Shown: positions 778 to 64,000 of the stretch, piece after piece
Layout of the letters: the number at the start of each line of letters is the position of its first letter
Numbering within the stretch: position 1 is the first letter of the stretch
Source: Candidatus Multivorans sp.
Lineage (GTDB): Bacteria; Acidobacteriota; Thermoanaerobaculia; Multivoradales; Multivoraceae
DNA length: 64,000 bases
NCBI GenBank assembly: GCA_965206765.1
Contig: OZ242222.1
Location: 1,191,165-1,255,164, forward strand
Direction: 5' to 3'
The notes under the pieces: generated by a model
The model's input: the letters and a program-made list of their open reading frames with translations, nothing else
Told to the model about the DNA's origin: nothing
The model's database searches: none
Position numbers and translations under genes: made by a program

Positions 778-1133
778 AAGTCCTCCTTTGCTTGTCCTTG
801 CCGCGGTGAAGCCGCGCCGAACCGATGTAGTCGAGCCGCCGACCCGACTGATTTCTGCATGCACGAAAGCGCTTTGGCCGCCTGTCTATCAGCGAGTCCA
901 TCAACTGGCAACCCACGGCGCCGACGCTGTGTGTCCTCCGCTAGCAACGTCCGTGCCCGGACGGCTTCTTGGGACGTAGAACAGGCCACACGCCCCGAAC
1001 TACCGCACCGATACGCCAGGAAGCACCCACCGCGATTGGCTTCCCGCTTCTCACGCTGATCGCGCGCGAGTAGACACAACAACTCTGTCGCAGCACTCGC
1101 CCCGGATCCGACGATTCTGTAGCGGGACGCGAG

Positions 1134-2444
1134 CTAGCCCGGTTCCAGCCGCCCGAGCACCGCTGTGTCCTCGCGCCATCCCGGGTGGGCCCTGACCTGC
1201 AACTCCAGGTGTACCCGCCGCTTCAGGAAGTCCTCCAGGTCCCGGCGGGCCGCGGTGCCGATTTCCTTGATCCGTTGGCCGCCGCGACCGATCACGATGC
1301 CCTTGTGGCTGTCCCGGTCGACCAGGATGTGCGCGAGCAGGTCCGTCCGCTTGTCGCCGTCCTCCCAGCCTTCGATGACCACGGCGGTCGTGAAAGGCAG
1401 TTCGTCCCGCGTCTGCTCGAGCACCTTCTCTCGAATCAGCTCCGCCACCAGGAAGCGTTCCGTGTGCACGGTCAGAATCTCCGGATCGTGCTGCGGCTCG
1501 CCCGCCGGAAGGCGCTGCCAGAGGATCTCCAGGACCTGTTCCACGCCGTCCCCGGTAAGCGCCGAGATGGGCACGATCTCCTCGAACACGCCGGGGCCGG
1601 CATACCGCTCGATCTCGGGCAACAGCCGGTGCTTCTTGACCTGGTCGATCTTGTTCAGCAGGCACAGCATCGGACGTTCCGGTCCGGCTGCCGCCGCGGC
1701 GCCGACGAGATCGAGGGCGTAGGCCTCGCCCTTGCCGAACGGAACCGCCACGTCGCGGATCAGGCATACGACGTCGGCCTCGTTGAGTGCCGCGGAGGCG
1801 GCGTGGACCATGCTGCGGTTCAACCGGTGCAGGGGCCGGTGCAGGCCGGGCGTGTCGTGGAACACCAGTTGGCCGCGTTCCGTGGTCAGGATGCCGATCA
1901 ATCGGTGGCGGGTGGTCTGCGGCTTGTCCGAGACGATCGCCAGCTTCTCGCCCAGCATCCGGTTCATCAGCGTCGACTTGCCCGCGTTCGGACGGCCCAC
2001 GAACGCCACCGTTCCGGTCTTGTACGGCCCCACGAAGTGCCCCCGCAGCCGCTGCTCCAGGGCCTCCATCTCGCCGTCGTCCGTCTCGTGGTCATAGCCC
2101 AGGCAATGCAGGATTCCGTGCAGTGCAAGCATCTGGAGCTCTCGCTCGAGGGCGGTGCGGCCGCGCGCCAGGGCCGTCTCCACCGAGATCACGACATCGC
2201 CCAGGTGCCGCCCCTCCGGGGTCGTCTCGCCGGGAAACGAGAGCACGTCGGTCGACGCATCGACCGTCCGGTAGCGGCGGTTCAACTCGCGGATCTCGTC
2301 GTCGCCTGTGAGGCGCAGGGTCAGCGTGGCCGGGGCCGGCGCAAGTTCCGCGACCACATCGTGAGCGACGCGGCGGAGACCGGGCAACAGGGCCTGGCAC
2401 CTGGCCTCCACGGTGGCCGCAACCTGCAGATCGATGGTCGCCAC
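1134..2444 (-). CDS. ybeY-era: Fused YbeY endoribonuclease (N-terminal ~135 aa, HGILHCLGYDH zinc motif) and Era GTPase (GRPNAGKSTLMN P-loop, C-terminal KH domain)
   Basis: A single uninterrupted 436-aa ORF. The YbeY H-x3-H-x5-H motif is followed in the same frame by the Era G1 motif, DTPG, NKxD and the KH-domain GxxG segment (VIGRGGQRIKEIG). Confidence 0.85.
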   Translation of the reverse strand: MATIDLQVAATVEARCQALLPGLRRVAHDVVAELAPAPATLTLRLTGDDEIRELNRRYRTVDASTDVLSFPGETTPEGRHLGDVVISVETALARGRTALERELQMLALHGILHCLGYDHETDDGEMEALEQRLRGHFVGPYKTGTVAFVGRPNAGKSTLMNRMLGEKLAIVSDKPQTTRHRLIGILTTERGQLVFHDTPGLHRPLHRLNRSMVHAASAALNEADVVCLIRDVAVPFGKGEAYALDLVGAAAAAGPERPMLCLLNKIDQVKKHRLLPEIERYAGPGVFEEIVPISALTGDGVEQVLEILWQRLPAGEPQHDPEILTVHTERFLVAELIREKVLEQTRDELPFTTAVVIEGWEDGDKRTDLLAHILVDRDSHKGIVIGRGGQRIKEIGTAARRDLEDFLKRRVHLELQVRAHPGWREDTAVLGRLEPG

Positions 2445-2450
2445 GGCGGG

Positions 2451-4868
2451 TCAGTCGGACTGTCCGCTCCCCGCGCCGCCGGGAAGCACCCGTAGCGAAC
2501 CGCGACTCTCGGCCTTGAAGTCGAACCCCGGATACTCCACCCGGTGGTGGTGGATCGTCTTCAGGACGTTCTGCACGGTGTAGCTCAGCCGGCGCAGGTC
2601 GGAGAGGGTCAGGTCGGTCTGATCCAACTGACCATCTTCGACAATGTCGTCCAGCAGGCGCGTGACCAAAGCCTGGATCGACTCCTCGGAGAAGTCCTTG
2701 AGGGTACGGCTCGCGGCCTCGACCGTATCGGCGACCATCAGCACGCCCATCGTCTTGTTCTGGGGCATCGGGCCCATGTACCGGTACTGGTGTTCGTTGA
2801 TGGTCTGGCCCGGCTCCGCCCGCTTCTTCGCCCGGTCGAGGAAGTAGCTGAGGGTGCGAGTACCGTGGTGCTGTTCGATCGCGTCCACGATCGGCTGCGG
2901 CAGACCCTCCTCCCGCGCCAGGCGGACGCCCTCCTTCACGTGATCGATGAGGATCAGCGCCGACATCGACGGAGCGAGCTTGTCGTGCGGGTTGTCTCCC
3001 TCGCGCTGGTTCTCCACGAAGTACTGCGGCCGCAGCACCTTGCCGATGTCGTGGTAGAGGCCTCCGACATACGCCAGCGTCGGGTTCCCGCCCACCGCCT
3101 CGCAGCCCGCCTTGGCGAGATTGGCGACCATCAGCGAGTGCTGGAAGGTGCCGGGCGCCTCGAAGGCAACGCGCTGAAGGAGCGGCTGATTCGTGTCGGA
3201 GAGCTCCATCAGCTTCATGTCCGTGGTCAGGAACAACGCCGCCTCGAACACGGGGATCGCGAAGCCGACCGCGGCCGCGACCAGCAGGCCGCCGAGGAGT
3301 GCGCAGAGCAGTTCGAAGCCCCAGCCGGCGATCGTGGCGCCGTTCTCGTCCAGCAGGGTCAGCACGGTCACCGAAGCCATGTTGACGAGTCCGACCAGCA
3401 GGCCCGCCCTGATCACCGCCGACCGCTGCTTCAGTTGATCGAGCGCGAACACGGCGGCGAGGCTGCCGGTCAGCGCGTAGAGCATCGTGCCGCCCGCCAA
3501 CCCAAGCTGCGAGGTGGTTGCCTCCGACCATCCGAGACGCCCCACCAGCACGGAGAAGACCAGGCCGGCAAGCAACCCGGCGCCACGGCCGTAGAGGACG
3601 GACACCAGCAGCGCGACCGCGGCGAACGGAATCGTGAAGCCGTAGCTCCGCGCTGAACTGAGCGCCTCGATCTCGAAGGAAGCGGCGAGCGCGTCGGCGA
3701 CCACGAAGCCGAAGCGGGTCGCCAGAAGCCCCAGAATCAACAGCAGCACGACGCTACCGAAGGCGCGGGCCTCGACGGTGACCAGCCGCTTGCGCCGGAA
3801 CGCGATCCACAGGAACGCCACCGCCAGCCCCAGCAGCAGCGCCGACGCCAGCGGCGATCGGAGCAGCGTCAGCGTCCCCTCGCTGCCCGTCATCTCCCGC
3901 AACAGACTGATGGCCTCCTGGTCGACCACGGCGCCCTTGCGCACGATGACCTGGCCCGCCCGGATCTGGTTGAACACCGATCCGACCGCTTCCGCGGCCG
4001 CGTTCCGGCGCTCCTGGGTCTCGTTCAGGTTCAGGTAGATGTTCGGGGTCAGGTTGACCATCAGGAAGTCGACGACCGTGTTCCGGTCGGCGCGGGACCA
4101 GCCGCCCCACCGGCCGACCTCCGCTTCCAGGTAGCTCTGCACCTCAACCGGGTACCCGCGGTAGCCGAAGAGGTCGAACTGGACCGACTCCTCGCCGGTC
4201 TGCATGTTGCGCTCCGTCACGCCCTCGAGCCGGTTCTGGAGCAGGGTCTCCTTGTTCTCCACGATCCCGCCCCGAAGCAGGAACCCGACCAGGCGAACGA
4301 GGCGCTCCTCCAGCTCCGCGCCTTCGTCCTGTTCGCCGATGCGGGCAGCAAGCAGGTCCGCGTGGCCTTCGTCGACCCGCAGATCGCTGCCCTCCCTCAG
4401 CCGCAGCAGCCGTTCGGAGGCCACGTCCTCCTCCGGCAGAAGCTCGGCCACCTCGTCGAAGCCCCGCTCGATCTCGAACAGGCGCCCGATCCGGCCCTCG
4501 ACCTCCTCAGCCAGGGCGGCGTCGAAGTCGTACAGCGGCCGGACCTCGGTACGGGCCCGCTGCTTCAGCTCCTCCGAGGTCGCCTCATCGAGGATCAGGA
4601 CGTCGCGGGTCGCGTGATAGTCGCGGTTCGCGATGTCGCCTTCGCTCAGATCCGGACCGAAGAAGAAGCCGGCCGGGGCCATGATCCAGGCGCCGGCCAG
4701 GACCATGAACACGACCCAGACGACGTCGAGCTCCAGCAACCAGTGCCACAGGCCGGCGACGGTCAGCCGTTCGCCGTGGCGCCGGAACATGCTGCGCCGC
4801 AGCCGCTTGCGAGCCTCCCGCCGCCGCCCGGTCCGGCGTCGCCGGGTTGTCTTCGCCGACGGGCTCAC
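2451..4868 (-). CDS. pgpH: 7TM-HD (HDIG-domain) membrane phosphohydrolase, PgpH/YqfF-like cyclic-di-AMP phosphodiesterase
   Basis: 805 aa. It has an N-terminal extracellular region, multiple TM helices and a C-terminal HD domain (LYHDIGKVL ... EQHHGTRTLSYF). It keeps the conserved position between phoH and ybeY. Confidence 0.8.
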   Translation of the reverse strand: MSPSAKTTRRRRTGRRREARKRLRRSMFRRHGERLTVAGLWHWLLELDVVWVVFMVLAGAWIMAPAGFFFGPDLSEGDIANRDYHATRDVLILDEATSEELKQRARTEVRPLYDFDAALAEEVEGRIGRLFEIERGFDEVAELLPEEDVASERLLRLREGSDLRVDEGHADLLAARIGEQDEGAELEERLVRLVGFLLRGGIVENKETLLQNRLEGVTERNMQTGEESVQFDLFGYRGYPVEVQSYLEAEVGRWGGWSRADRNTVVDFLMVNLTPNIYLNLNETQERRNAAAEAVGSVFNQIRAGQVIVRKGAVVDQEAISLLREMTGSEGTLTLLRSPLASALLLGLAVAFLWIAFRRKRLVTVEARAFGSVVLLLILGLLATRFGFVVADALAASFEIEALSSARSYGFTIPFAAVALLVSVLYGRGAGLLAGLVFSVLVGRLGWSEATTSQLGLAGGTMLYALTGSLAAVFALDQLKQRSAVIRAGLLVGLVNMASVTVLTLLDENGATIAGWGFELLCALLGGLLVAAAVGFAIPVFEAALFLTTDMKLMELSDTNQPLLQRVAFEAPGTFQHSLMVANLAKAGCEAVGGNPTLAYVGGLYHDIGKVLRPQYFVENQREGDNPHDKLAPSMSALILIDHVKEGVRLAREEGLPQPIVDAIEQHHGTRTLSYFLDRAKKRAEPGQTINEHQYRYMGPMPQNKTMGVLMVADTVEAASRTLKDFSEESIQALVTRLLDDIVEDGQLDQTDLTLSDLRRLSYTVQNVLKTIHHHRVEYPGFDFKAESRGSLRVLPGGAGSGQSD

Positions 4869-44961: not shown

Positions 44962-45969
44962 CTAGCTTCCACGGTTCGTAGCCAGCCACTCCTCCAGGGC
45001 CACTCTGGCCGGTTCCTCCAGCCAGGGCAGGACGCCCAGGTTGCCCTCGCGGGCGGCGGCGTCTATGTCGACTTCGTTGCGGTCGAGAAAGCGGGCGGCG
45101 CGGTAGTACAGGGGGCCCTCGGAGTCGGCGGCGTCGCCGAGTTCGATCAGGTGGCCGGCGAGTTCGCGGGTGCGGCGGAGCCTGGGCGGCAGCGGTGGCG
45201 CGGGCAGGGGTCTGGGCAGGCGAGGCTGGAGACCCGCGGCTTCGGCTGCGCATTGGAACGCCGCGGCGTCGGGCGGCGACTCGCCGCCGTGAAACAGGGC
45301 GTCGAAGGCCTCGGGCCAGGTGGATTGCAGGCGTTCGGCGAGCAGGCGCCGCTCGCGGGCGCCGAGCTGCATCGCGCGCGGTACGACGAGACGGGCGCCG
45401 GCGGCGGCGAGTCGCGCCATCGCCGGCGCCAGGAGGCCCGGCTGGTCGGTCCAGTCGGCAACGAGCGGCCAGACGACGGTCGCGCCGGCCAGCGGACGCG
45501 GTTCGAACGGGAGGCCAGGCTGCCGACGCTCCCTGAACTGGCTTCGCAGCGCGGCAGCGTGGCGGACCAGGGCGTCGAGGAGGTCGACTGCGACGACGGC
45601 GTTGGGGGGCAGGTCGGCAAGTCTTGGCGCGGCCACCTCGCCAAGGCTCGACCCGCCGACCGGGATGTTCGCTACCACTTGAATCAGGAGCGGCACTCCG
45701 GCACCGGCCGCGGCCTCGACGATGCGGGTACGGAGGGGCTCGTGATCCGCCGGTAGCGGGGGAACGTAGACGACATCGGTCACCGAGTGCACCCCTTCGG
45801 CGGCCTCGGCGCCGGCCGGCAAGGGTCCGGCCGTCGACGGCGGCAGGCCGCCGGTGGCGAGATCGCACCAGAGGTCGTCGCTGCCGGCCGCGGGCCAACG
45901 GGGAAAGCTGTGACGGATCCAGAGGTTCGCCGGTTCGGCGACGTGTTCGCGGAGGTTGAGAGCGCTCAC
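44962..45969 (-). CDS. Hypothetical protein (335 aa) with no recognised family
   Basis: Clean high-GC3 ORF, Pro/Ala/Leu-rich, with no catalytic signature that I can assign. Its 3' end is the source of the duplication at 44110..44290. Confidence 0.55.
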   Translation of the reverse strand: MSALNLREHVAEPANLWIRHSFPRWPAAGSDDLWCDLATGGLPPSTAGPLPAGAEAAEGVHSVTDVVYVPPLPADHEPLRTRIVEAAAGAGVPLLIQVVANIPVGGSSLGEVAAPRLADLPPNAVVAVDLLDALVRHAAALRSQFRERRQPGLPFEPRPLAGATVVWPLVADWTDQPGLLAPAMARLAAAGARLVVPRAMQLGARERRLLAERLQSTWPEAFDALFHGGESPPDAAAFQCAAEAAGLQPRLPRPLPAPPLPPRLRRTRELAGHLIELGDAADSEGPLYYRAARFLDRNEVDIDAAAREGNLGVLPWLEEPARVALEEWLATNRGS

Positions 45970-45974
45970 GCCCT

Positions 45975-46150
45975 GACGCTCCCGAACCAGATGCGGGCGG
46001 GACGCCCGCGTTCCCAGGGCAGAGAGGTCATGGGGCGACGTTCCCGAACCAGATGCGGGCGAGACGCCCGCGTTCCCAGGGCAGAGAGGTCACGGGGCGA
46101 CGTTCCCGACGCGGATGCGGGCAAGATGCCCGCGTTCCCAGGACGGACGG
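45975..46150. repeat. Tandem array of about three 62-bp units, each carrying a GC-rich hairpin (GCGGGC[G/A]-NGA-[C/T]GCCCGC) plus the conserved flank GTTCCCAGG
   Basis: The period is 62 bp (CGAACCAGATGCGGGC at 45983 and again at 46045). The third unit has diverged and abuts the ribE stop. Confidence 0.85.
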
Positions 46151-46151
46151 C

Positions 46152-46892
46152 TCAACGCCGGGCCGACTCGAGGGCGGCTGCGACGGCCGCCTCGACGGAC
46201 TTCTGCACGTACCGGGCGAGAACGTCGCCCTCGACGTTGACCCGGTCTCCAGGCTTCAGGTCCGAGAGGGTCGTGACCTCGAGCGTGTGCGGAATCAGGG
46301 CGACGTCGAAGGTCTCTTCGTCGAGCGCCGCGATCGTCAGGCTGACGCCGTCGATGGTCACGCTGCCCTTGAGAACGAGGCTGTTCTCGAGCTCGGCGGG
46401 GACTTCGAACGTGATGACCCGGTTGTCTCCGAGTTCCTCGACTTTCGCCACCCGGGTCGTCGTGTCGACGTGTCCCTGGACCCAGTGGCCGCCAAGCGGA
46501 TCGCCGGCCGAGAGCGGCGGCTCCAGGTTCACCTCATCGCCGTCCTGAAGCGTGCCCAGCGTCGTTCGGCTGAGGGTTTCAGGAGACAGATCGAAGGCGG
46601 ACCACGCCGGGATGGCGTCTTCCGCGCCTTTGCCCGCAACTCCGTTCGCGCCGCCCTGCTCCACCACGGTAAGGCAAACGCCGGAGACCGAGAGGCTGGC
46701 GCCCAAATCCAGCCGCGACGCAAGCCTCTCGGAGTGCCCGATCACCACGCGGGAACCCGTGGGGCGCGTCCTCGCGCCACACGCGACCCAGTCCGAGCGC
46801 CCGTCTTCGGGCGGTCGGATGGCACCGTGGCGCCCCAGGGCCTTTGGGGCCTCGACTACCCGGCCAAACTCCGTGACAATTCCGGTAAACAT
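46152..46892 (-). CDS. ribE: Riboflavin synthase alpha subunit
   Basis: MFTGIV start and a duplicated lumazine-binding barrel. Confidence 0.8.
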   Translation of the reverse strand: MFTGIVTEFGRVVEAPKALGRHGAIRPPEDGRSDWVACGARTRPTGSRVVIGHSERLASRLDLGASLSVSGVCLTVVEQGGANGVAGKGAEDAIPAWSAFDLSPETLSRTTLGTLQDGDEVNLEPPLSAGDPLGGHWVQGHVDTTTRVAKVEELGDNRVITFEVPAELENSLVLKGSVTIDGVSLTIAALDEETFDVALIPHTLEVTTLSDLKPGDRVNVEGDVLARYVQKSVEAAVAAALESARR

Positions 46893-52064: not shown

Positions 52065-53369
52065 CTAGGGCTGCTCGTCAGGACGTACCTTCGCTGCAAC
52101 CGCAGCCGCGAAACCATCCCGCGGAATCGTCTCCTGGGTGCTGTCGTAGAAATCCCTCAACACGACCTCTCCGTTCTTCTCTTCGTCCTCGCCAAAGAGC
52201 ACGACCCACCGACAGTCGTGGCGGGACGCCTGTTTCAGCCGAGCCTTGAGAGGCCGCAGAGAATCGAATTCACAGATCGCAGGGATACCGGCGGCGCGCA
52301 ACTCCTGCGCCAACACCATGCCGTGCCGACGGTACGAGCCGCCGATCGGAATCACGCACACGGGTCTCCGGCGAAGGTCCTCGGCGTTCAGGCGCGCAAA
52401 GGCTCCGGGGATCTTCAGTACGAGGTCGACCAGCCGATCCTGACCGATCGCGAAACCGATTCCGGGCACACTCGGACCGCCAAGTTCGGCGATCAAACCA
52501 TCGTAGCGACCGCCGCCCAGGATCGCGTTCTGCGCGCCCAAGCCCGCAGATGTGATCTCGAACACAGTCCGGGTGTAGTAGTCGAGGCCGCGCACGAGCT
52601 TGTCCTCTACCCGGTGGGCGACACCGGCCTGGACCAGTTGCTCGCGCACCTCCTGGAAGTGGTCGTGAGCCCGACCGCCCAAGTCATCGGACAACCGCGG
52701 GGCGTTCTCGAGCAACTCTCGCTCCTTGGGCGCCTTCGTGTCCAGGATGCGGAGGGGATTCGTCTCCAGCCGTCGCCGGCTGTCCCCGCCCAGTTCGTCA
52801 CGGTACGGTTCGAGGAACTCCCGCAGGCGCTGGGAGTACCGCTGTCTGCATTCCACATCGCCGACCGAGTTGAGGCCCACCTCCAGGTCCTCGAACCCGA
52901 GTTCCTCCAGGAAGCGCACCAGCATGACGAGAAGCTCGACGTCGCTGTAGGGACCCGGATCGCCGATCAGCTCGGCGCCAATCTGGTGGAACTGACGGTA
53001 GCGGCCTTCCTGGGGGCGCTCGTAGCGAAAGTACGGCCCCATGTAGAAGACCTTGACTGGCTGCGGCCCCGACGCCCAGTTGTTCTGCAGGTAGGCGCGC
53101 GCCACCGGCGCCGTGCCTTCCGGGCGGAGCGTCAGGCTACGCCCCTTCTTGTCGTCGAAGGTGTACATCTGCTTGCCGACGATCTCGCTGCCCTCGCCCA
53201 CGCCGCGCACAAACAGCTCCGTCTCCTCCACGATCGGTGTGCGCACCTCGTCGTAGCCGTAGAGGGAGAACACCTCTCGCGCCTTCTCCTCCACAAACGC
53301 AAAGGCAGGGGCCTTGTTGACCAGGTCGTGCATTCCCTTGACGGTCTGGAATCGTCGCTTCGCAGCCAT
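52065..53369 (-). CDS. hisS: Histidine--tRNA ligase
   Basis: Start MAAKRRFQTVKGMHD, class II motifs and an anticodon-binding C-domain. Confidence 0.85.
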   Translation of the reverse strand: MAAKRRFQTVKGMHDLVNKAPAFAFVEEKAREVFSLYGYDEVRTPIVEETELFVRGVGEGSEIVGKQMYTFDDKKGRSLTLRPEGTAPVARAYLQNNWASGPQPVKVFYMGPYFRYERPQEGRYRQFHQIGAELIGDPGPYSDVELLVMLVRFLEELGFEDLEVGLNSVGDVECRQRYSQRLREFLEPYRDELGGDSRRRLETNPLRILDTKAPKERELLENAPRLSDDLGGRAHDHFQEVREQLVQAGVAHRVEDKLVRGLDYYTRTVFEITSAGLGAQNAILGGGRYDGLIAELGGPSVPGIGFAIGQDRLVDLVLKIPGAFARLNAEDLRRRPVCVIPIGGSYRRHGMVLAQELRAAGIPAICEFDSLRPLKARLKQASRHDCRWVVLFGEDEEKNGEVVLRDFYDSTQETIPRDGFAAAVAAKVRPDEQP

Positions 53370-53437
53370 AGGGGCTGATCGTATCCATCCCCCGCTGCAT
53401 AGGGGCACTGGTAGCGAGCTTCAACCGCGAAACAAGC

Positions 53438-53490
53438 CAGCGCTTCGGACCGGATGCGGGCAGGATGCCCGCGTTCCCAGGATCGGAGCG
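53438..53490. repeat. Dispersed single copy of the 45975..46150 repeat unit (GGATGCGGGCAGGATGCCCGCGTTCCCAGGA)
   Basis: About 85% identical to the third unit of the tandem array, with the same hairpin and GTTCCCAGG flank. It is intergenic, between hisS and the Uma2 gene. Confidence 0.8.
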
Positions 53491-53515: not shown

Positions 53516-54112
53516 TCATCTGTCCGAGAACTTCCGGTCGACCGCGGCCCAGAGTTCGTCCATGTTCAACTCGATCTCCGGCACAGCGGCCGACTGGTAG
53601 CTGGAGCCCTCCGGCGCACGCTCGGCAAAGCCCTCGCCGTCGTGAACCAGGAACGCGATCCGGCGCTGCCGCGGATCGACAATCCAGTACTCACCTACAC
53701 CGGCCGCGGCATAGAGGTCGAGCTTGTGGACCCGGTCGCGTGACGCCGTCGAAGGCGACAGCACCTCGACCAGGAGATCCGGCGCGCCTTCCATCCAGTC
53801 CTGAACAATCTCGCTCCGCTCCGGGGAGACGTAGATCACGTCGGGCTGGACCACCGAATGATCCGCCAGGTGGACATCCATCGGCGCCACGATCGCAGCG
53901 CCGCCGGTGCGATCCGCCGCGTCGAGGAAGAGCCGGAACAGATAGCCGACGATGAACTGGTGGAGGAAGATTGGGCTGGGACTCAGGTAGAACCTCCCGC
54001 GGATCAACTCGCAGCGGGGTTCATCGGGGAGGGCCATGTAGTCGCGGCGGCGGTACGGCCCCAAACTGTGCGGCAGCGTCCGCGGCGGCCGGTCGAGCAG
54101 CGTCACGGTCAT
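53516..54112 (-). CDS. Uma2 family (DUF820) PD-(D/E)XK endonuclease
   Basis: 198 aa with motifs PDV.YV ... EVLSPST ... YW.VD typical of Uma2/DUF820. Confidence 0.7.
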   Translation of the reverse strand: MTVTLLDRPPRTLPHSLGPYRRRDYMALPDEPRCELIRGRFYLSPSPIFLHQFIVGYLFRLFLDAADRTGGAAIVAPMDVHLADHSVVQPDVIYVSPERSEIVQDWMEGAPDLLVEVLSPSTASRDRVHKLDLYAAAGVGEYWIVDPRQRRIAFLVHDGEGFAERAPEGSSYQSAAVPEIELNMDELWAAVDRKFSDR

Positions 54113-61273: not shown

Positions 61274-64000
61274 CACCGCTCGCTCCGAATCGCCTGCAGG
61301 TCGTGCAGCCGCGTCCCGTCCTTGCGCTGGACCCGCAACTCTTCGTAGGGGCCGCACACCCGCCGGTAGTCGCAGTACCGGCATTCGTCCCTCGCCGGCG
61401 CCGCGGGCAGGAAGCCGTCCTCCAGCGCTCCGTCGACCGTCTTCAGCAGCCGACGGGCGGCGCCGCGGCTCCGCTCGTCGAGCGGCACGGCCACCGTGCT
61501 GTAGCCGCCCCGCTGGGTGCAGTAGAAGAGCCGCCCCGAAACCACCTCCCGCTCGAGCACGTCCTCCGCGGCCAGACTGTAGAGGACCGGCTGCAGCACC
61601 TTGCCGCCGCCGATCACCAGGCCGGCGCCGGCATGAACGGCGCGACCGGTCTTGTGGTCGGTCACTCGCAGCCGACCGTCCGCGTCCTCCTCCACGAGGT
61701 CGATCGAGCCACGCAGCCGCGCCCCGTCGAGCACCTCCGCCGGCGCCCGCTTGCTGCGCGGATCCCGGTCCGCGGACCGCCTGAGACCGAAGGAGAGTTC
61801 GGCGTGGACCGGCTTCCACTGGCCGCCCTCGTCCGCCACCTGCCGCAACCAGCCGCGCAGGTCGGCCCGCAAGCCCTCGAACTCCGCCCTCCAGACGCGC
61901 TCGATCGGCGGCGCGAGTTCCTCCCGGTAGTCACGCTCGCTCTGAACGAGCACCTCATCCAGCAACTCGAAGACCGTCTCCAGGCGGCTCAGCACCACCG
62001 GCAACAGGTCCGCCGCCTCCAGGGCGCCAAACAGGCGGAACTGGATCTCGTGGAAGATGCTGCCCCGGGTCATCGGGTTCATCTGCTCGAGCTGGACGAG
62101 TTCCTTGCGCGGCCTGAGGTACAGCACCGCCTGCAGGAAGAACCGGTAGGGGCAGGCGGCGAAGTTCTGGAGGGCGGTCGGCGAGTAGGAGCGCACGCCG
62201 ATCCGCTGGGCAGCGAGCGACTCCCTGGCCTCCGGGCTCGCGTCCACGAGACCGTCGACCGGGAACCAGGGTCGCCGCCAGCGCCGGCCACGCGCCTGCA
62301 GGGCGCGTTTCAGGTGCGGGTTCGACTCCAGGAGAAAGCGCGCCCGCCCTCTGCGCTCCGCGACCGGGGCGCCGGGACCCAGGAGCGGTTGCAGCAGGGC
62401 GAGATCGAACTCGGCCTCGTCGACCGCGTCCTCGGCTTCGGCGGGCGCCGGCCAGCCGACCACCGCGGCGCCGGCGGCCGCGGCGCGCCGGCCGAGCGCG
62501 TCGAGGTCCGGCAGGCTGCCTTCGGCGCCCCGCAGCACGTCGAGCGCGTAAAGCGACGGCACCCGTGCCCGCCCCTGCACCAGGTCGACCCGCGGATACG
62601 AAACGACCAGCCAGCGACTCGCGGCGCCGATGGCGAGGCGAAGCAGCAGTTGCTCCCGCCGGGTGCGGCCCAGATCCTCGGTGAGCCGGTAGCCCGCTTG
62701 CCGCAGGGTCCGGCGACCTTCGTCGAGCAGCAGCGGATCCTCCTTCGCCCGCCGTGGGAACACCCCCTCGGCCAGGCCCGGCACGAACACGACGTCGAAG
62801 CTCCGTCCCGCCGCCTCCTCGACGCCACCGACGAAGACCCGGCCGAACCGCCGTTTCGGCGGCCGGCTGCGGCTGAATCCCAAGCGCTCGCCCAGGATCC
62901 GCTCCACCTCGGGCAAGCCGACCTCGTCGACCTGCGCCAGGGGTCGGAGCTCGGCAAGCACCTCGAGCACGGTCTCCGGCCGCCGCAACGCCATCGTCGC
63001 CAACTCCTGCAGACGCTCGAGCCACCATCCCCAGTCCGCGCGCTCGGGCAGGGCGTCGAGGAACTCGATCAGGGGCAGCGCGAACGTCTGGAGCGTTTCC
63101 AGGCGCCCGATCTGCCGCTCCAGATAGCCCCTGTGGCCTTCGTCCTCGTCCCCGGCCTCGCGCAGTTGCAGCCGGAACTCCGCGCCGAGACCCGCCAGCC
63201 GCTTCTTCCAGCGTTCGGCCCCGCCGACCACGGCGGCATCGACCAGCAGGCGCTCCCACTGGGAAGGGACGCGGAGCGCGCCGGCCGGCGCCGCCTCTTC
63301 CTGGGTTTCGCGAGCCTCCGCTGCGCTGTCGGTCACAGAGTGCGGGCCAGACGCCCGCCGAGACAACTCCGGCGACTTGAGGACGAGTTGTTCGCCCGCC
63401 GGCTCGACCCAGGGCGCCTCGCGCTGCGGGGGTCCGCCGCCCTTGGCCGGTTCGGGAGTCTGGCCGAGCGACAGGTACTCGGCGAAGCGGCTCGCCGAGA
63501 GTCTCTCCCCCACGCACGCCAGCAGGGCCAGGAAGGCGCGGCCGGCCGGATTCGGGCGCAACGCGCCCCGGGTGACGTAGGCGGGGATGCCGGCGCGGCT
63601 GAGCGCGTCCTCCACCAGGGGCAGGTAGGCGGCCGGCTGGCGAAGCAGGATCGCCATGCGATCGAAGTTGAGGCCCCCGGCCGCGGCACGGTGGATGCGC
63701 CGGGCGATCTCGACGCACTCCTGGCCCTCGCCGGCCGCCGAGAACAGGTCGACCGAAGAGCCGGCCGGCACATCTGCGGCACTGCGTGGAAGCGCGGCCA
63801 TCCTGCCCGCACCTGGGGGCGCGGGCGTCTCGCCCGCATCCGTCGTTCCGCCAAGCGGCGAGGACGCGTCCACACCGGTCTCAAAGACGAAGCGCTGGAC
63901 CCGATCCAGCCGCCGACCGCCCGAAGTCCCGGCGACGACCGCTTCCTCCCGGTCGAGATCGATCACCGCCCCTTCGCCGAGCAGCGAGCCCAGCCACTCC
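61273..64000 (-). CDS. addB: Helicase/nuclease subunit B-like protein (AddB/RecB-family nuclease domain with Fe-S cysteines); the N-terminus lies beyond the window end
   Basis: The first Cys (NFAACPYRF) and the nuclease motif (DLVEEDADGRLRVTDHKTG) are followed by a C-terminal CRYCDYRRVCGPYE triad. This is the AddB Fe-S cluster arrangement. Confidence 0.75.
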   Translation of the reverse strand, partial: EWLGSLLGEGAVIDLDREEAVVAGTSGGRRLDRVQRFVFETGVDASSPLGGTTDAGETPAPPGAGRMAALPRSAADVPAGSSVDLFSAAGEGQECVEIARRIHRAAAGGLNFDRMAILLRQPAAYLPLVEDALSRAGIPAYVTRGALRPNPAGRAFLALLACVGERLSASRFAEYLSLGQTPEPAKGGGPPQREAPWVEPAGEQLVLKSPELSRRASGPHSVTDSAAEARETQEEAAPAGALRVPSQWERLLVDAAVVGGAERWKKRLAGLGAEFRLQLREAGDEDEGHRGYLERQIGRLETLQTFALPLIEFLDALPERADWGWWLERLQELATMALRRPETVLEVLAELRPLAQVDEVGLPEVERILGERLGFSRSRPPKRRFGRVFVGGVEEAAGRSFDVVFVPGLAEGVFPRRAKEDPLLLDEGRRTLRQAGYRLTEDLGRTRREQLLLRLAIGAASRWLVVSYPRVDLVQGRARVPSLYALDVLRGAEGSLPDLDALGRRAAAAGAAVVGWPAPAEAEDAVDEAEFDLALLQPLLGPGAPVAERRGRARFLLESNPHLKRALQARGRRWRRPWFPVDGLVDASPEARESLAAQRIGVRSYSPTALQNFAACPYRFFLQAVLYLRPRKELVQLEQMNPMTRGSIFHEIQFRLFGALEAADLLPVVLSRLETVFELLDEVLVQSERDYREELAPPIERVWRAEFEGLRADLRGWLRQVADEGGQWKPVHAELSFGLRRSADRDPRSKRAPAEVLDGARLRGSIDLVEEDADGRLRVTDHKTGRAVHAGAGLVIGGGKVLQPVLYSLAAEDVLEREVVSGRLFYCTQRGGYSTVAVPLDERSRGAARRLLKTVDGALEDGFLPAAPARDECRYCDYRRVCGPYEELRVQRKDGTRLHDLQAIRSER

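Follow-up and report, generated by a model that had tools for sequence, protein, structure and literature searches.

A repetitive extragenic palindrome family in Candidatus Multivorans, flanking RAYT transposase genes in relatives and arrayed in tandem behind ribE

The hairpins repeated between ribE and the next gene in the window (the whole 64-kb stretch of Candidatus Multivorans DNA analysed here) belong to a family of repetitive extragenic palindromes (REPs). The elements are short palindromes, present in many copies and mainly extragenic, and in relatives inverted copies bracket a RAYT gene. The family is probably dispersed or maintained by a host RAYT, and the array next to ribE is likewise best taken as a local duplication. 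Enterobacteria and Pseudomonas have well-described REP/RAYT systems; most of the studied families have a GT[AG]G foot, and the copying mechanism is still argued. The class is known, and this family was not found described: in a literature search for its sequence strings the four longer strings were absent and the two 10-mers appeared only in unrelated papers.

Repeat copies in the window

The repeat copies and the genes adjoining them are as follows.

45975..46142, minus strand: tandem array, 2.7 units of 62 bp (TRF and sequence)
45990..46018, plus strand: REP core copy 1, GATGCGGGCGGGACGCCCGCGTTCCCAGG, closing pair G-C, loop GGA, 59.2 bits
46052..46080, plus strand: REP core copy 2, GATGCGGGCGAGACGCCCGCGTTCCCAGG, closing pair G-C, loop AGA, 57.9 bits
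46114..46142, plus strand: REP core copy 3, GATGCGGGCAAGATGCCCGCGTTCCCAGG, closing pair A-T, 60.1 bits
53453..53481, plus strand: dispersed REP copy, closing pair A-T, loop GGA, 65.5 bits
63812..63840, minus strand: fifth REP copy, tag GCGCCCCCAGG, two mismatches to the pattern
63787..63811, minus strand: degenerate half copy after the fifth REP (sequence)
44962..45969, minus strand: conserved 335-aa gene, function unknown, without Pfam domain
46152..46892, minus strand: ribE
52065..53408, minus strand: hisS
53516..54112, minus strand: Uma2-family gene
61273..>64000, minus strand: AddB-like PD-(D/E)XK nuclease gene, continuing beyond the window end

The 29-mer GATGCGGGC[R][R]GA[Y]GCCCGCGTTCCCAGG is found exactly on the plus strand at 45990, 46052, 46114 and 53453. 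The common form of the copies is GATGCGGGC[R][R]GA[Y]GCCCGCG(TT/CC)CCCAGG, with G-C or A-T as the loop-closing pair, and the pattern is matched 5 times in the window against 0.00 expected from 100 dinucleotide-preserving shuffles. A covariance model run over the window gives just five copies above 50 bits (range 50-66) and a next match at 14.7 bits, so that decayed copies are absent from the window. The fifth copy had been overlooked in an earlier reading made from the sequence only.

TRF reports a period of 62 with 2.7 copies, 92% matches and a score of 280 over 45975..46142. The period claimed by the sequence-only reading is thus correct, but the last of its three head-to-tail units is partial. 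Each unit consists of one REP core and a 33-nt spacer, and the array lies between the ribE stop (46152) and the GTG start (45969) of the 335-aa gene. It is assigned to the strand with the CCTGGGAAC-hairpin form, which for the flanking genes is the sense strand; the genes adjoining the repeats all lie on the minus strand, and their sense strand reads CCTGGGAAC-hairpin-ATC. The hairpins of the units read GCGGGCG-GGA-CGCCCGC, GCGGGCG-AGA-CGCCCGC and GCGGGCA-AGA-TGCCCGC, and the hairpin at 53456 is GCGGGCA-GGA-TGCCCGC. The first of these forms, formerly ascribed to the units in general, holds for unit 1 and not for unit 2, which has the loop AGA, while the change of the closing pair from G-C to A-T in unit 3 and in the distant copy is real in the sequence at 46114 and 53453. 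The flank GTTCCCAGG, once described as invariant, is not strictly so, as the tag of the fifth copy shows.

The dispersed copy lies between the stop of the Uma2-family gene (53516) and the start of hisS, and its flanks (...CGGATGCGGGC...CCCAGGATCGGAGC) match the family flanks in other genomes. The window has its copies singly or in direct tandem, never as inverted doublets. The hisS...ribE operon postulated earlier finds no support: the two genes are ~5 kb apart and nothing links them as one operon.

Spread, placement and turnover of the family

A pattern search across genomes bore out the expectation of a dispersed family. One genome per species was scanned with GATGCGG-N9-CCGCGTTCCCAGG, leaving the inner stem and the loop free, and more than 105 stretches were among the matches listed. 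Most of these lie in complete Candidatus Multivorans chromosomes or MAGs, related soil acidobacterial genomes (Acidobacteriota, Thermoanaerobaculia), the chromosomes having at least 16-17 copies each among the matches listed. The other matches listed come from MAGs with the labels Gammaproteobacteria, Binatia, Planctomycetota, Terriglobia, Armatimonadia, Anaerolineales and Opitutales. Model R1 found ~60 further copies in the fetched loci (781 kb), which corresponds to ~77 per Mb when the copy that brought each locus in is left out, in line with 78 per Mb in the window. Extrapolation from this density suggests a few hundred copies per genome. Conservation is sharp, with ~33 nt almost invariant and the flanks at background. 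Judged by the AddB-like protein, the closest relatives are an ENA contig (97% amino-acid identity) and Candidatus Multivorans OZ242167 (95%). Rfam at the gathering threshold returned nothing but a tRNA in the window, and permissive Rfam scans of the array and of the long composite element returned nothing near threshold.

In Candidatus Multivorans the REP occurs mainly as singlets or direct repeats. In the MAGs labelled Gammaproteobacteria or Binatia it takes the form of inverted doublets ~4-35 nt apart, in a REPIN-like arrangement (L031 337..443, L069, L071 6750..6855, L085 4557..4639 and L092 4964..5046).

By crude GC3-based gene calls, 102 of 115 copies lie between genes, as do four of the five in the window. 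The intergenic copies are biased to gene ends, 46 being in co-directional gaps, 12 in convergent and only 3 in divergent ones, and most copies neighbour ordinary metabolic genes. Orientation is biased as well: in co-directional gaps the plus form is antisense to the flanking genes 31 times and sense 15 times (p=0.026; locus-level Fisher p=5e-5). A replication-strand bias, as expected of single-stranded DNA transposition, was considered and rejected, as orientation shows no association with local GC skew (25/24 vs 14/12, p=1).

Copy number is polymorphic among relatives, and one clean empty site was found. L096 carries at 2139..2203 a 65-nt insert, consisting of the core and small flanking hairpins, between a stop codon and the region upstream of a tRNA gene; L002 (~3862), collinear apart from this, is without it. 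At this single clean empty site no target-site duplication of the REP is evident and no target-site signature is definable; two further candidate sites are too diverged to read.

Pairing and folding of the stem

The hairpin has a 7-bp G+C-rich stem, a 3-nt loop and a conserved single-stranded tag on one side, which is GTTCCCAGG on the plus strand of the window and, on the opposite strand, CCTGGGAAC preceding the hairpin on its 5′ side. Among 117 aligned copies, many of them paralogues sharing descent, the closing pair is G-C in 65, A-U in 48, C-G in 2, G-U in 1 and other or unpaired in 1, and 0 of 500 shuffles reached their covariation score. In a set of 193 loosely ascertained copies the closing pair is G-C, A-T, C-G or T-A with 7 non-Watson-Crick exceptions, and 24 of 1351 stem cells are non-Watson-Crick. 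The covariation, from which selection on the stem had been argued for the window, therefore holds family-wide. Each closing pair, G-C or A-T, is commonly found with either A or G as the first loop base, so that the pattern does not simply reflect two clonal lineages. In sister subfamilies the hairpin survives two-sided changes at other stem positions, the stems being GCCGGCG..CGCCGGC (tag GCACCCAG), GCGGACA..TGTCCGC and GCGGCCA..TGGCCGC.

Intermediates of the exchange are found too, for instance the G.T closing pair of the copy at the ribE site of L107. G.T and A.C intermediates number 3 and 3 at the closing pair and 6 and 6 overall. Folded as single-stranded DNA, either strand gives a hairpin of -9.8 to -10.6 kcal/mol (z -2.2 to -3.4), but the whole intergenic region folds no better than shuffles (z -0.98 and -1.92). 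A strand asymmetry had been hinted at by constant U.G/G.U pairs extending the plus-strand stem, and was dropped since G.T equals A.C and the strands fold alike. Equal frequency and equal folding give no evidence on which strand matters. Compensatory changes in a palindrome can also come in one step by intra-hairpin templated repair; as this mimics compensatory change, covariation alone does not prove selection. The pattern in the aligned copies thus points to selection, or templated repair, for pairing, with no strand preference evident.

RAYT genes beside the hairpin in relatives

A motif scan of six-frame translations revealed no RAYT gene within the 64-kb window. Unbiased clustering of 561 neighbouring ORFs around the family copies gave no recurrent mobility gene, and ten of the larger ORF clusters, one member of each being read by eye, have an ordinary metabolic or housekeeping look. 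The motif scan applied to the fetched loci identified one candidate.

L020 2169..2813, minus strand: RAYT gene, 214 aa, with HVHVL (HUH) and YIEGNP motifs (motif scan)

This protein scores 33.7 bits against Pfam Y1_Tnp (cut-off 23) and 79.8 bits against NCBIfam REP_Tyr_transpos (REP-associated tyrosine transposase), 0.2 bit under the cut-off of 80, and its sole PDB match is 4ER8, the E. coli TnpA-REP. The gene is bracketed by minus-orientation hairpins at ~2075..2165 and plus-orientation hairpins at ~2858..3050. Its homologues number in the thousands, and many are named "REP element-mobilizing transposase RayT" by their sources.

Four homologues, 77, 62, 60 and 55% identical, have inverted hairpins on both sides (five fetched loci, L109-L113), the 55% one coming from a Planctomycetota MAG. 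The hairpin around these four is GCGGGC-N5-GCCCGC plus GCG/GCT-TCCCAG, and some of the flanks are 52-78-nt tandem arrays, with eight copies in L109 and four in L110. A fifth homologue (L117, 53%) is on a lower-GC contig that carries the label Oscillospiraceae; GCGGGCTGGAAGCCCGC follows directly downstream of the RAYT gene, and since the contig breaks off shortly upstream of it, one flank is visible. RAYT genes in relatives are thus flanked by this hairpin. A RAYT gene bracketed by inverted REPs is known as a REPtron (PMC6006769, PMC2817692).

The array next to ribE

At the orthologous site 3′ of ribE, L107 has one REP copy, L106 has two, 64 nt apart, and the window has three; the one copy of L108 contains a second element within its tag. 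The variation from one to three copies among close relatives argues against a fixed regulatory architecture. In the window and the orthologs the first REP begins 9 nt past the ribE stop. The sequence-only reading had placed the array in the promoter region of the downstream gene; in L107 only ~70 nt separate the ribE stop from the next gene start, which suggests an intercistronic position instead.

Read along the gene strand, the window units have TGGTTCGGGAACGTCGCCCCATGACCTCTCTGC as their 33-nt spacer; the native sequence past the last copy, which contains the Shine-Dalgarno GGAG and the GTG with which the 335-aa gene starts, is TGGTTCGGGAGCGTCAGGGCGTGAGCGCTCTCA. Aligned by eye, ~26 of 33 positions agree. 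By this alignment the spacer is a diverged duplicate of the downstream gene's leader, Shine-Dalgarno and start included, which makes the array look like a local segmental duplication and not like three insertions: one resident REP with the adjacent 33-nt leader would have been duplicated head-to-tail, probably with a GGGAAC microhomology of tag and leader as the seed. GGGAAC/GGGAGC is present in both tag and leader, which also explains a 30-nt sub-period in the TRF output.

Direct tandem REP arrays adjoin RAYT genes as well, at L109 1036..1455 (~52 nt x 8), L110 2209..2494 (78 nt x 4) and L020 (2075..2165 and 2858..3050). Tandem arraying is therefore a trait of the family and not a peculiarity of the window.

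In the leader duplicates the Shine-Dalgarno-like GGGAGC is changed to GGGAAC. The duplicate in array unit 2 retains an ATG (46031..46029, minus strand; region 45966..46031), which opens a 21-codon ORF, MTSLPWERGRPARIWFGSVRA, whose TGA overlaps the GTG start of the 335-aa gene (GTGA). This could be an upstream ORF or mere duplication debris.

In-frame copies and element B

The fifth REP and its half copy (63787..63840) lie in frame inside the AddB-like gene and encode DAGETPAPPGAGRMA, the REP being translated as DAGETPAPP and the half copy (18 nt) as GAGRMA. AddB-like homologues are ~1074 aa long, the closest being 97% identical, and the site is therefore truly internal to the gene. The REP insert is missing from homologues of 79-81% identity, and the half copy is missing from the 97% one. 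Both fall in a hypervariable loop (63700..63920, minus strand) between RVQRFVFETG and SVDLFSAAGEG. In the homologues P0247 and P0252 a second, related repeat, element B, lies within the REP without breaking the frame (AFHPRARGRTRGVVRGWRGT). In the window, element B is found in ribE.

46756..46824, minus strand: element B, a 69-nt two-hairpin repeat in frame in ribE, adding 23 aa, GAIRPPEDGRSDWVACGARTRPT

The layout of element B is TGCCATCC...hairpin...TTCGC...hairpin...CCACGGG. It is absent from an otherwise 95% identical RibE homologue, and the empty ribE site in L106/L107 reads GCCAC|GGTTCCCGCG; two 76% identical RibE homologues (P0007, P0008) have a similar insert at the same position. The DNA examined holds 27 copies, nearly all at ...TG|CCATCC...CCACNCGG|GTTC... 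without target duplication, a few deviating at the right junction. Element B is often nested in the REP tag as GCCCGCGTG|B|GTTCCCAGG (L067 4540..4680, L012 2710..2850, L047 2935..3080, L068 7010..7155, L020 2890..2975, L108 3760..3850 and L114 ~880..960). The junctions point to site-specific insertion 5′ of TTCC, that is, 3′ of GGAAC on the other strand.

RibE has a second length-variable region (~46560..46610, codons ~87-100; alignment columns 88-135), which reads AGKGAEDAIP in the window, is absent in 211-aa homologues and is up to ~45 aa longer in P0033, P0022 and P0008.

Comparison with known systems

The family resembles the E. coli REP/BIME elements and their TnpA-REP (4ER8; PMC3479197, PMC6006769, PMC2817692) in its short G+C-rich imperfect palindrome with a one-sided foot, in its high copy number, in its mostly extragenic position near gene ends with regularly spaced clusters, and in the Y1/HUH gene with a class-2 Y---NP motif and inverted repeats around it. 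The foot differs: it is CYGGGARC (8-9 nt) here and not the E. coli-type GT[AG]G. GTAG or GTGG stands at the hairpin foot on neither strand, the flank being CCTGGGAAC, or CTGGGAGC near the more distant RAYTs. In the alignment to 4ER8, the WQ and EH of E. coli TnpA-REP, positions linked to GTAG recognition (PMC6006769), correspond to WM and DR in the L020 RAYT. Subclass 2.6 and class 3 are also without the GT[AG]G consensus (PMC6006769), and the present family therefore departs from the canonical type and not from the REP class. Clusters here are direct tandem arrays, whereas E. coli BIMEs alternate, and unlike in the E. coli case the same hairpin stands beside RAYTs only 53-77% identical, in MAGs of several phyla.

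Pseudomonas fluorescens REPINs are likewise non-autonomous repeats tied to a RAYT, and the Gammaproteobacteria and Binatia doublets resemble them; the inverted doublet is thought to be the mobile unit in Pseudomonas (PMC3116915, PMC3337134), whereas the window and most Candidatus Multivorans loci have singlets or direct repeats. Element B resembles the MITEs of IS200/IS605 (PATEs) and IS608-type targeting (PMC6006769) in its two subterminal hairpins and a fixed short site without duplication, but unlike PATEs it has the foot of the REP itself as its target. None of the copies was seen to have a TnpA-IS200 or TnpB gene nearby.

Rickettsia palindromic elements (RPEs) are translated in-frame inserts that are longer and Rickettsia-specific. 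The copies in the AddB-like nuclease and ribE are similar in being in frame and translated as extra loops; they differ in that the inserts are the 29-nt REP (with flanks) and the 69-nt two-hairpin element. In-frame REP insertions have been noted before (PMC6006769).

Dispersal by RAYT and alternative explanations

In analogy to E. coli TnpA-REP, the host would have a single-copy RAYT (HUH/Y1) that binds the folded single-stranded hairpin with its foot and cleaves and rejoins DNA at the hairpin, whereby copies would be dispersed or maintained. Recognition would need a paired stem and leave the base at the closing position free, letting G-C, A-T, C-G and T-A all persist, while the remaining stem and the tag would be constrained in sequence. 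We infer that the source genome has a cognate RAYT of its own, which by the same analogy would mobilise the copies. The strand bound by RAYT would more likely be the CYGGGARC-hairpin strand, with the tag 5′, because GTAG sits 5′ in canonical REPs.

A primary role of the hairpins as cis-acting RNA in the ribD-ribE transcript, whether as 3′-end or intercistronic stabilisers, attenuators or factor-independent terminators, with selection for RNA structure and repetition as reuse of a module, seems unlikely to us. It would suit the placement of the copies, which are mostly transcribed and near gene 3′ ends and avoid divergent (promoter) regions (3 divergent against 12 convergent), their orientation bias of ~2:1 (31 vs 15) relative to flanking genes, and the constant 9-nt distance of the first REP from the ribE stop. 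For E. coli REPs, effects on mRNA turnover, on the termination of transcription and on translation have been reported (PMC6006769, PMC3479197), and a secondary RNA-level effect of that kind may exist here. The structured RNA or terminator contemplated in the sequence-only reading finds no support: 45800..46300 has 0 terminator-like sites on either strand, there is no T-run pattern that would give a U-tract terminator, Rfam gives no match, and the intergenic region folds like its shuffles. Nor is there an RNA-type asymmetry, both strands folding alike with G.T equal to A.C. A third of the copies are in the opposite orientation, some are in frame within coding sequence, close relatives have one to three copies at the same site, and an RNA function leaves the inverted arrays around RAYT genes unexplained. 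The same inverted arrays bear on a still less probable explanation, in which the repeats are MITEs of another transposon class (IS200/IS605 TnpA or another IS) or DNA sites bound by a host protein, for example gyrase, IHF or a nucleoid protein, and the RAYTs are mere neighbours. Inverted copies bracket the RAYT at all four homologue loci where both flanks are visible, as in a REPtron (PMC6006769), and no other transposase family recurs in 105 loci. The foot lacks GT[AG]G, most copies are beside ordinary metabolic genes, and element B occupies one fixed position (...TG|B|GTTC...) with no duplication of the target, in an IS200/IS605-like manner, all of which would fit such an origin; the REP itself has neither terminal inverted repeats nor the target-site duplication of cut-and-paste transposition.

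The 62-nt period equals a 29-nt repeat plus a 33-nt spacer, which is typical of type I-E CRISPR, and the array might for this reason be taken for a degenerate CRISPR-like mini-array. We regard this as extremely improbable, in agreement with the sequence-only reading. The spacers are near-identical (92% alike) and homologous to the native flank, most members of the family are solitary, with hundreds of such copies dispersed in genomes, and the best Rfam CRISPR family, CRISPR-DR20, scores 14.4 bits against a gathering threshold of 42. Cas genes were not noticed among ten neighbouring ORFs read by eye. That reading's description of a small REP/MITE-like family fits the dispersed, high-copy hairpins found inverted around RAYT in relatives, and dispersal or maintenance by a host RAYT is the explanation we prefer.

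A broader proposition is that the RAYT clade and the hairpin GCGGGC-N-GGA-N′-GCCCGC (CYGGGARC foot) have remained associated across MAGs of at least 7 higher-taxon labels, with a hitch-hiking element B that homes precisely to the REP foot, and with both elements exonised in frame in housekeeping proteins. We put this forward tentatively and think it somewhat doubtful as a whole. If true, it would provide an unusually clean natural record of RAYT-type cut and join sites and a REP type with a long non-GTAG guide. The family itself comes from uncultured Acidobacteriota, has relatives in several phyla and carries a different, longer foot; its stem is near-invariant save for the covarying closing pair, direct arrays stand beside the transposase, and filled and empty sites can be compared. 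For annotation, such hairpins are repeat elements and not regulatory RNAs or CRISPR, and inserts of the REP or element B make length-variable loops in otherwise conserved proteins.

Sister modules and longer palindromes

Sister modules with other hairpins and a similar tag were also seen, often stacked right behind a copy of the main REP: GGATGCCGGCGGGGRCGCCGGC+GCACCCAG and GCGGAAGCCAGCAGGCTTCCGC+GTTCCCAGG (L036 ~3380, L040 ~3280, L054 ~3860 and L103 ~5710; L037 7768, L070 2882 and L086 1719). Around some copies a longer palindrome, GCGCGGCAGAAC ...REP... GTTCTGCCGCGC, is present (L006 400..500, L067 2040..2140, L102 390..490 and L103 2290..2390), with perfect 19-bp arms in L006, which suggests a larger composite repeat.
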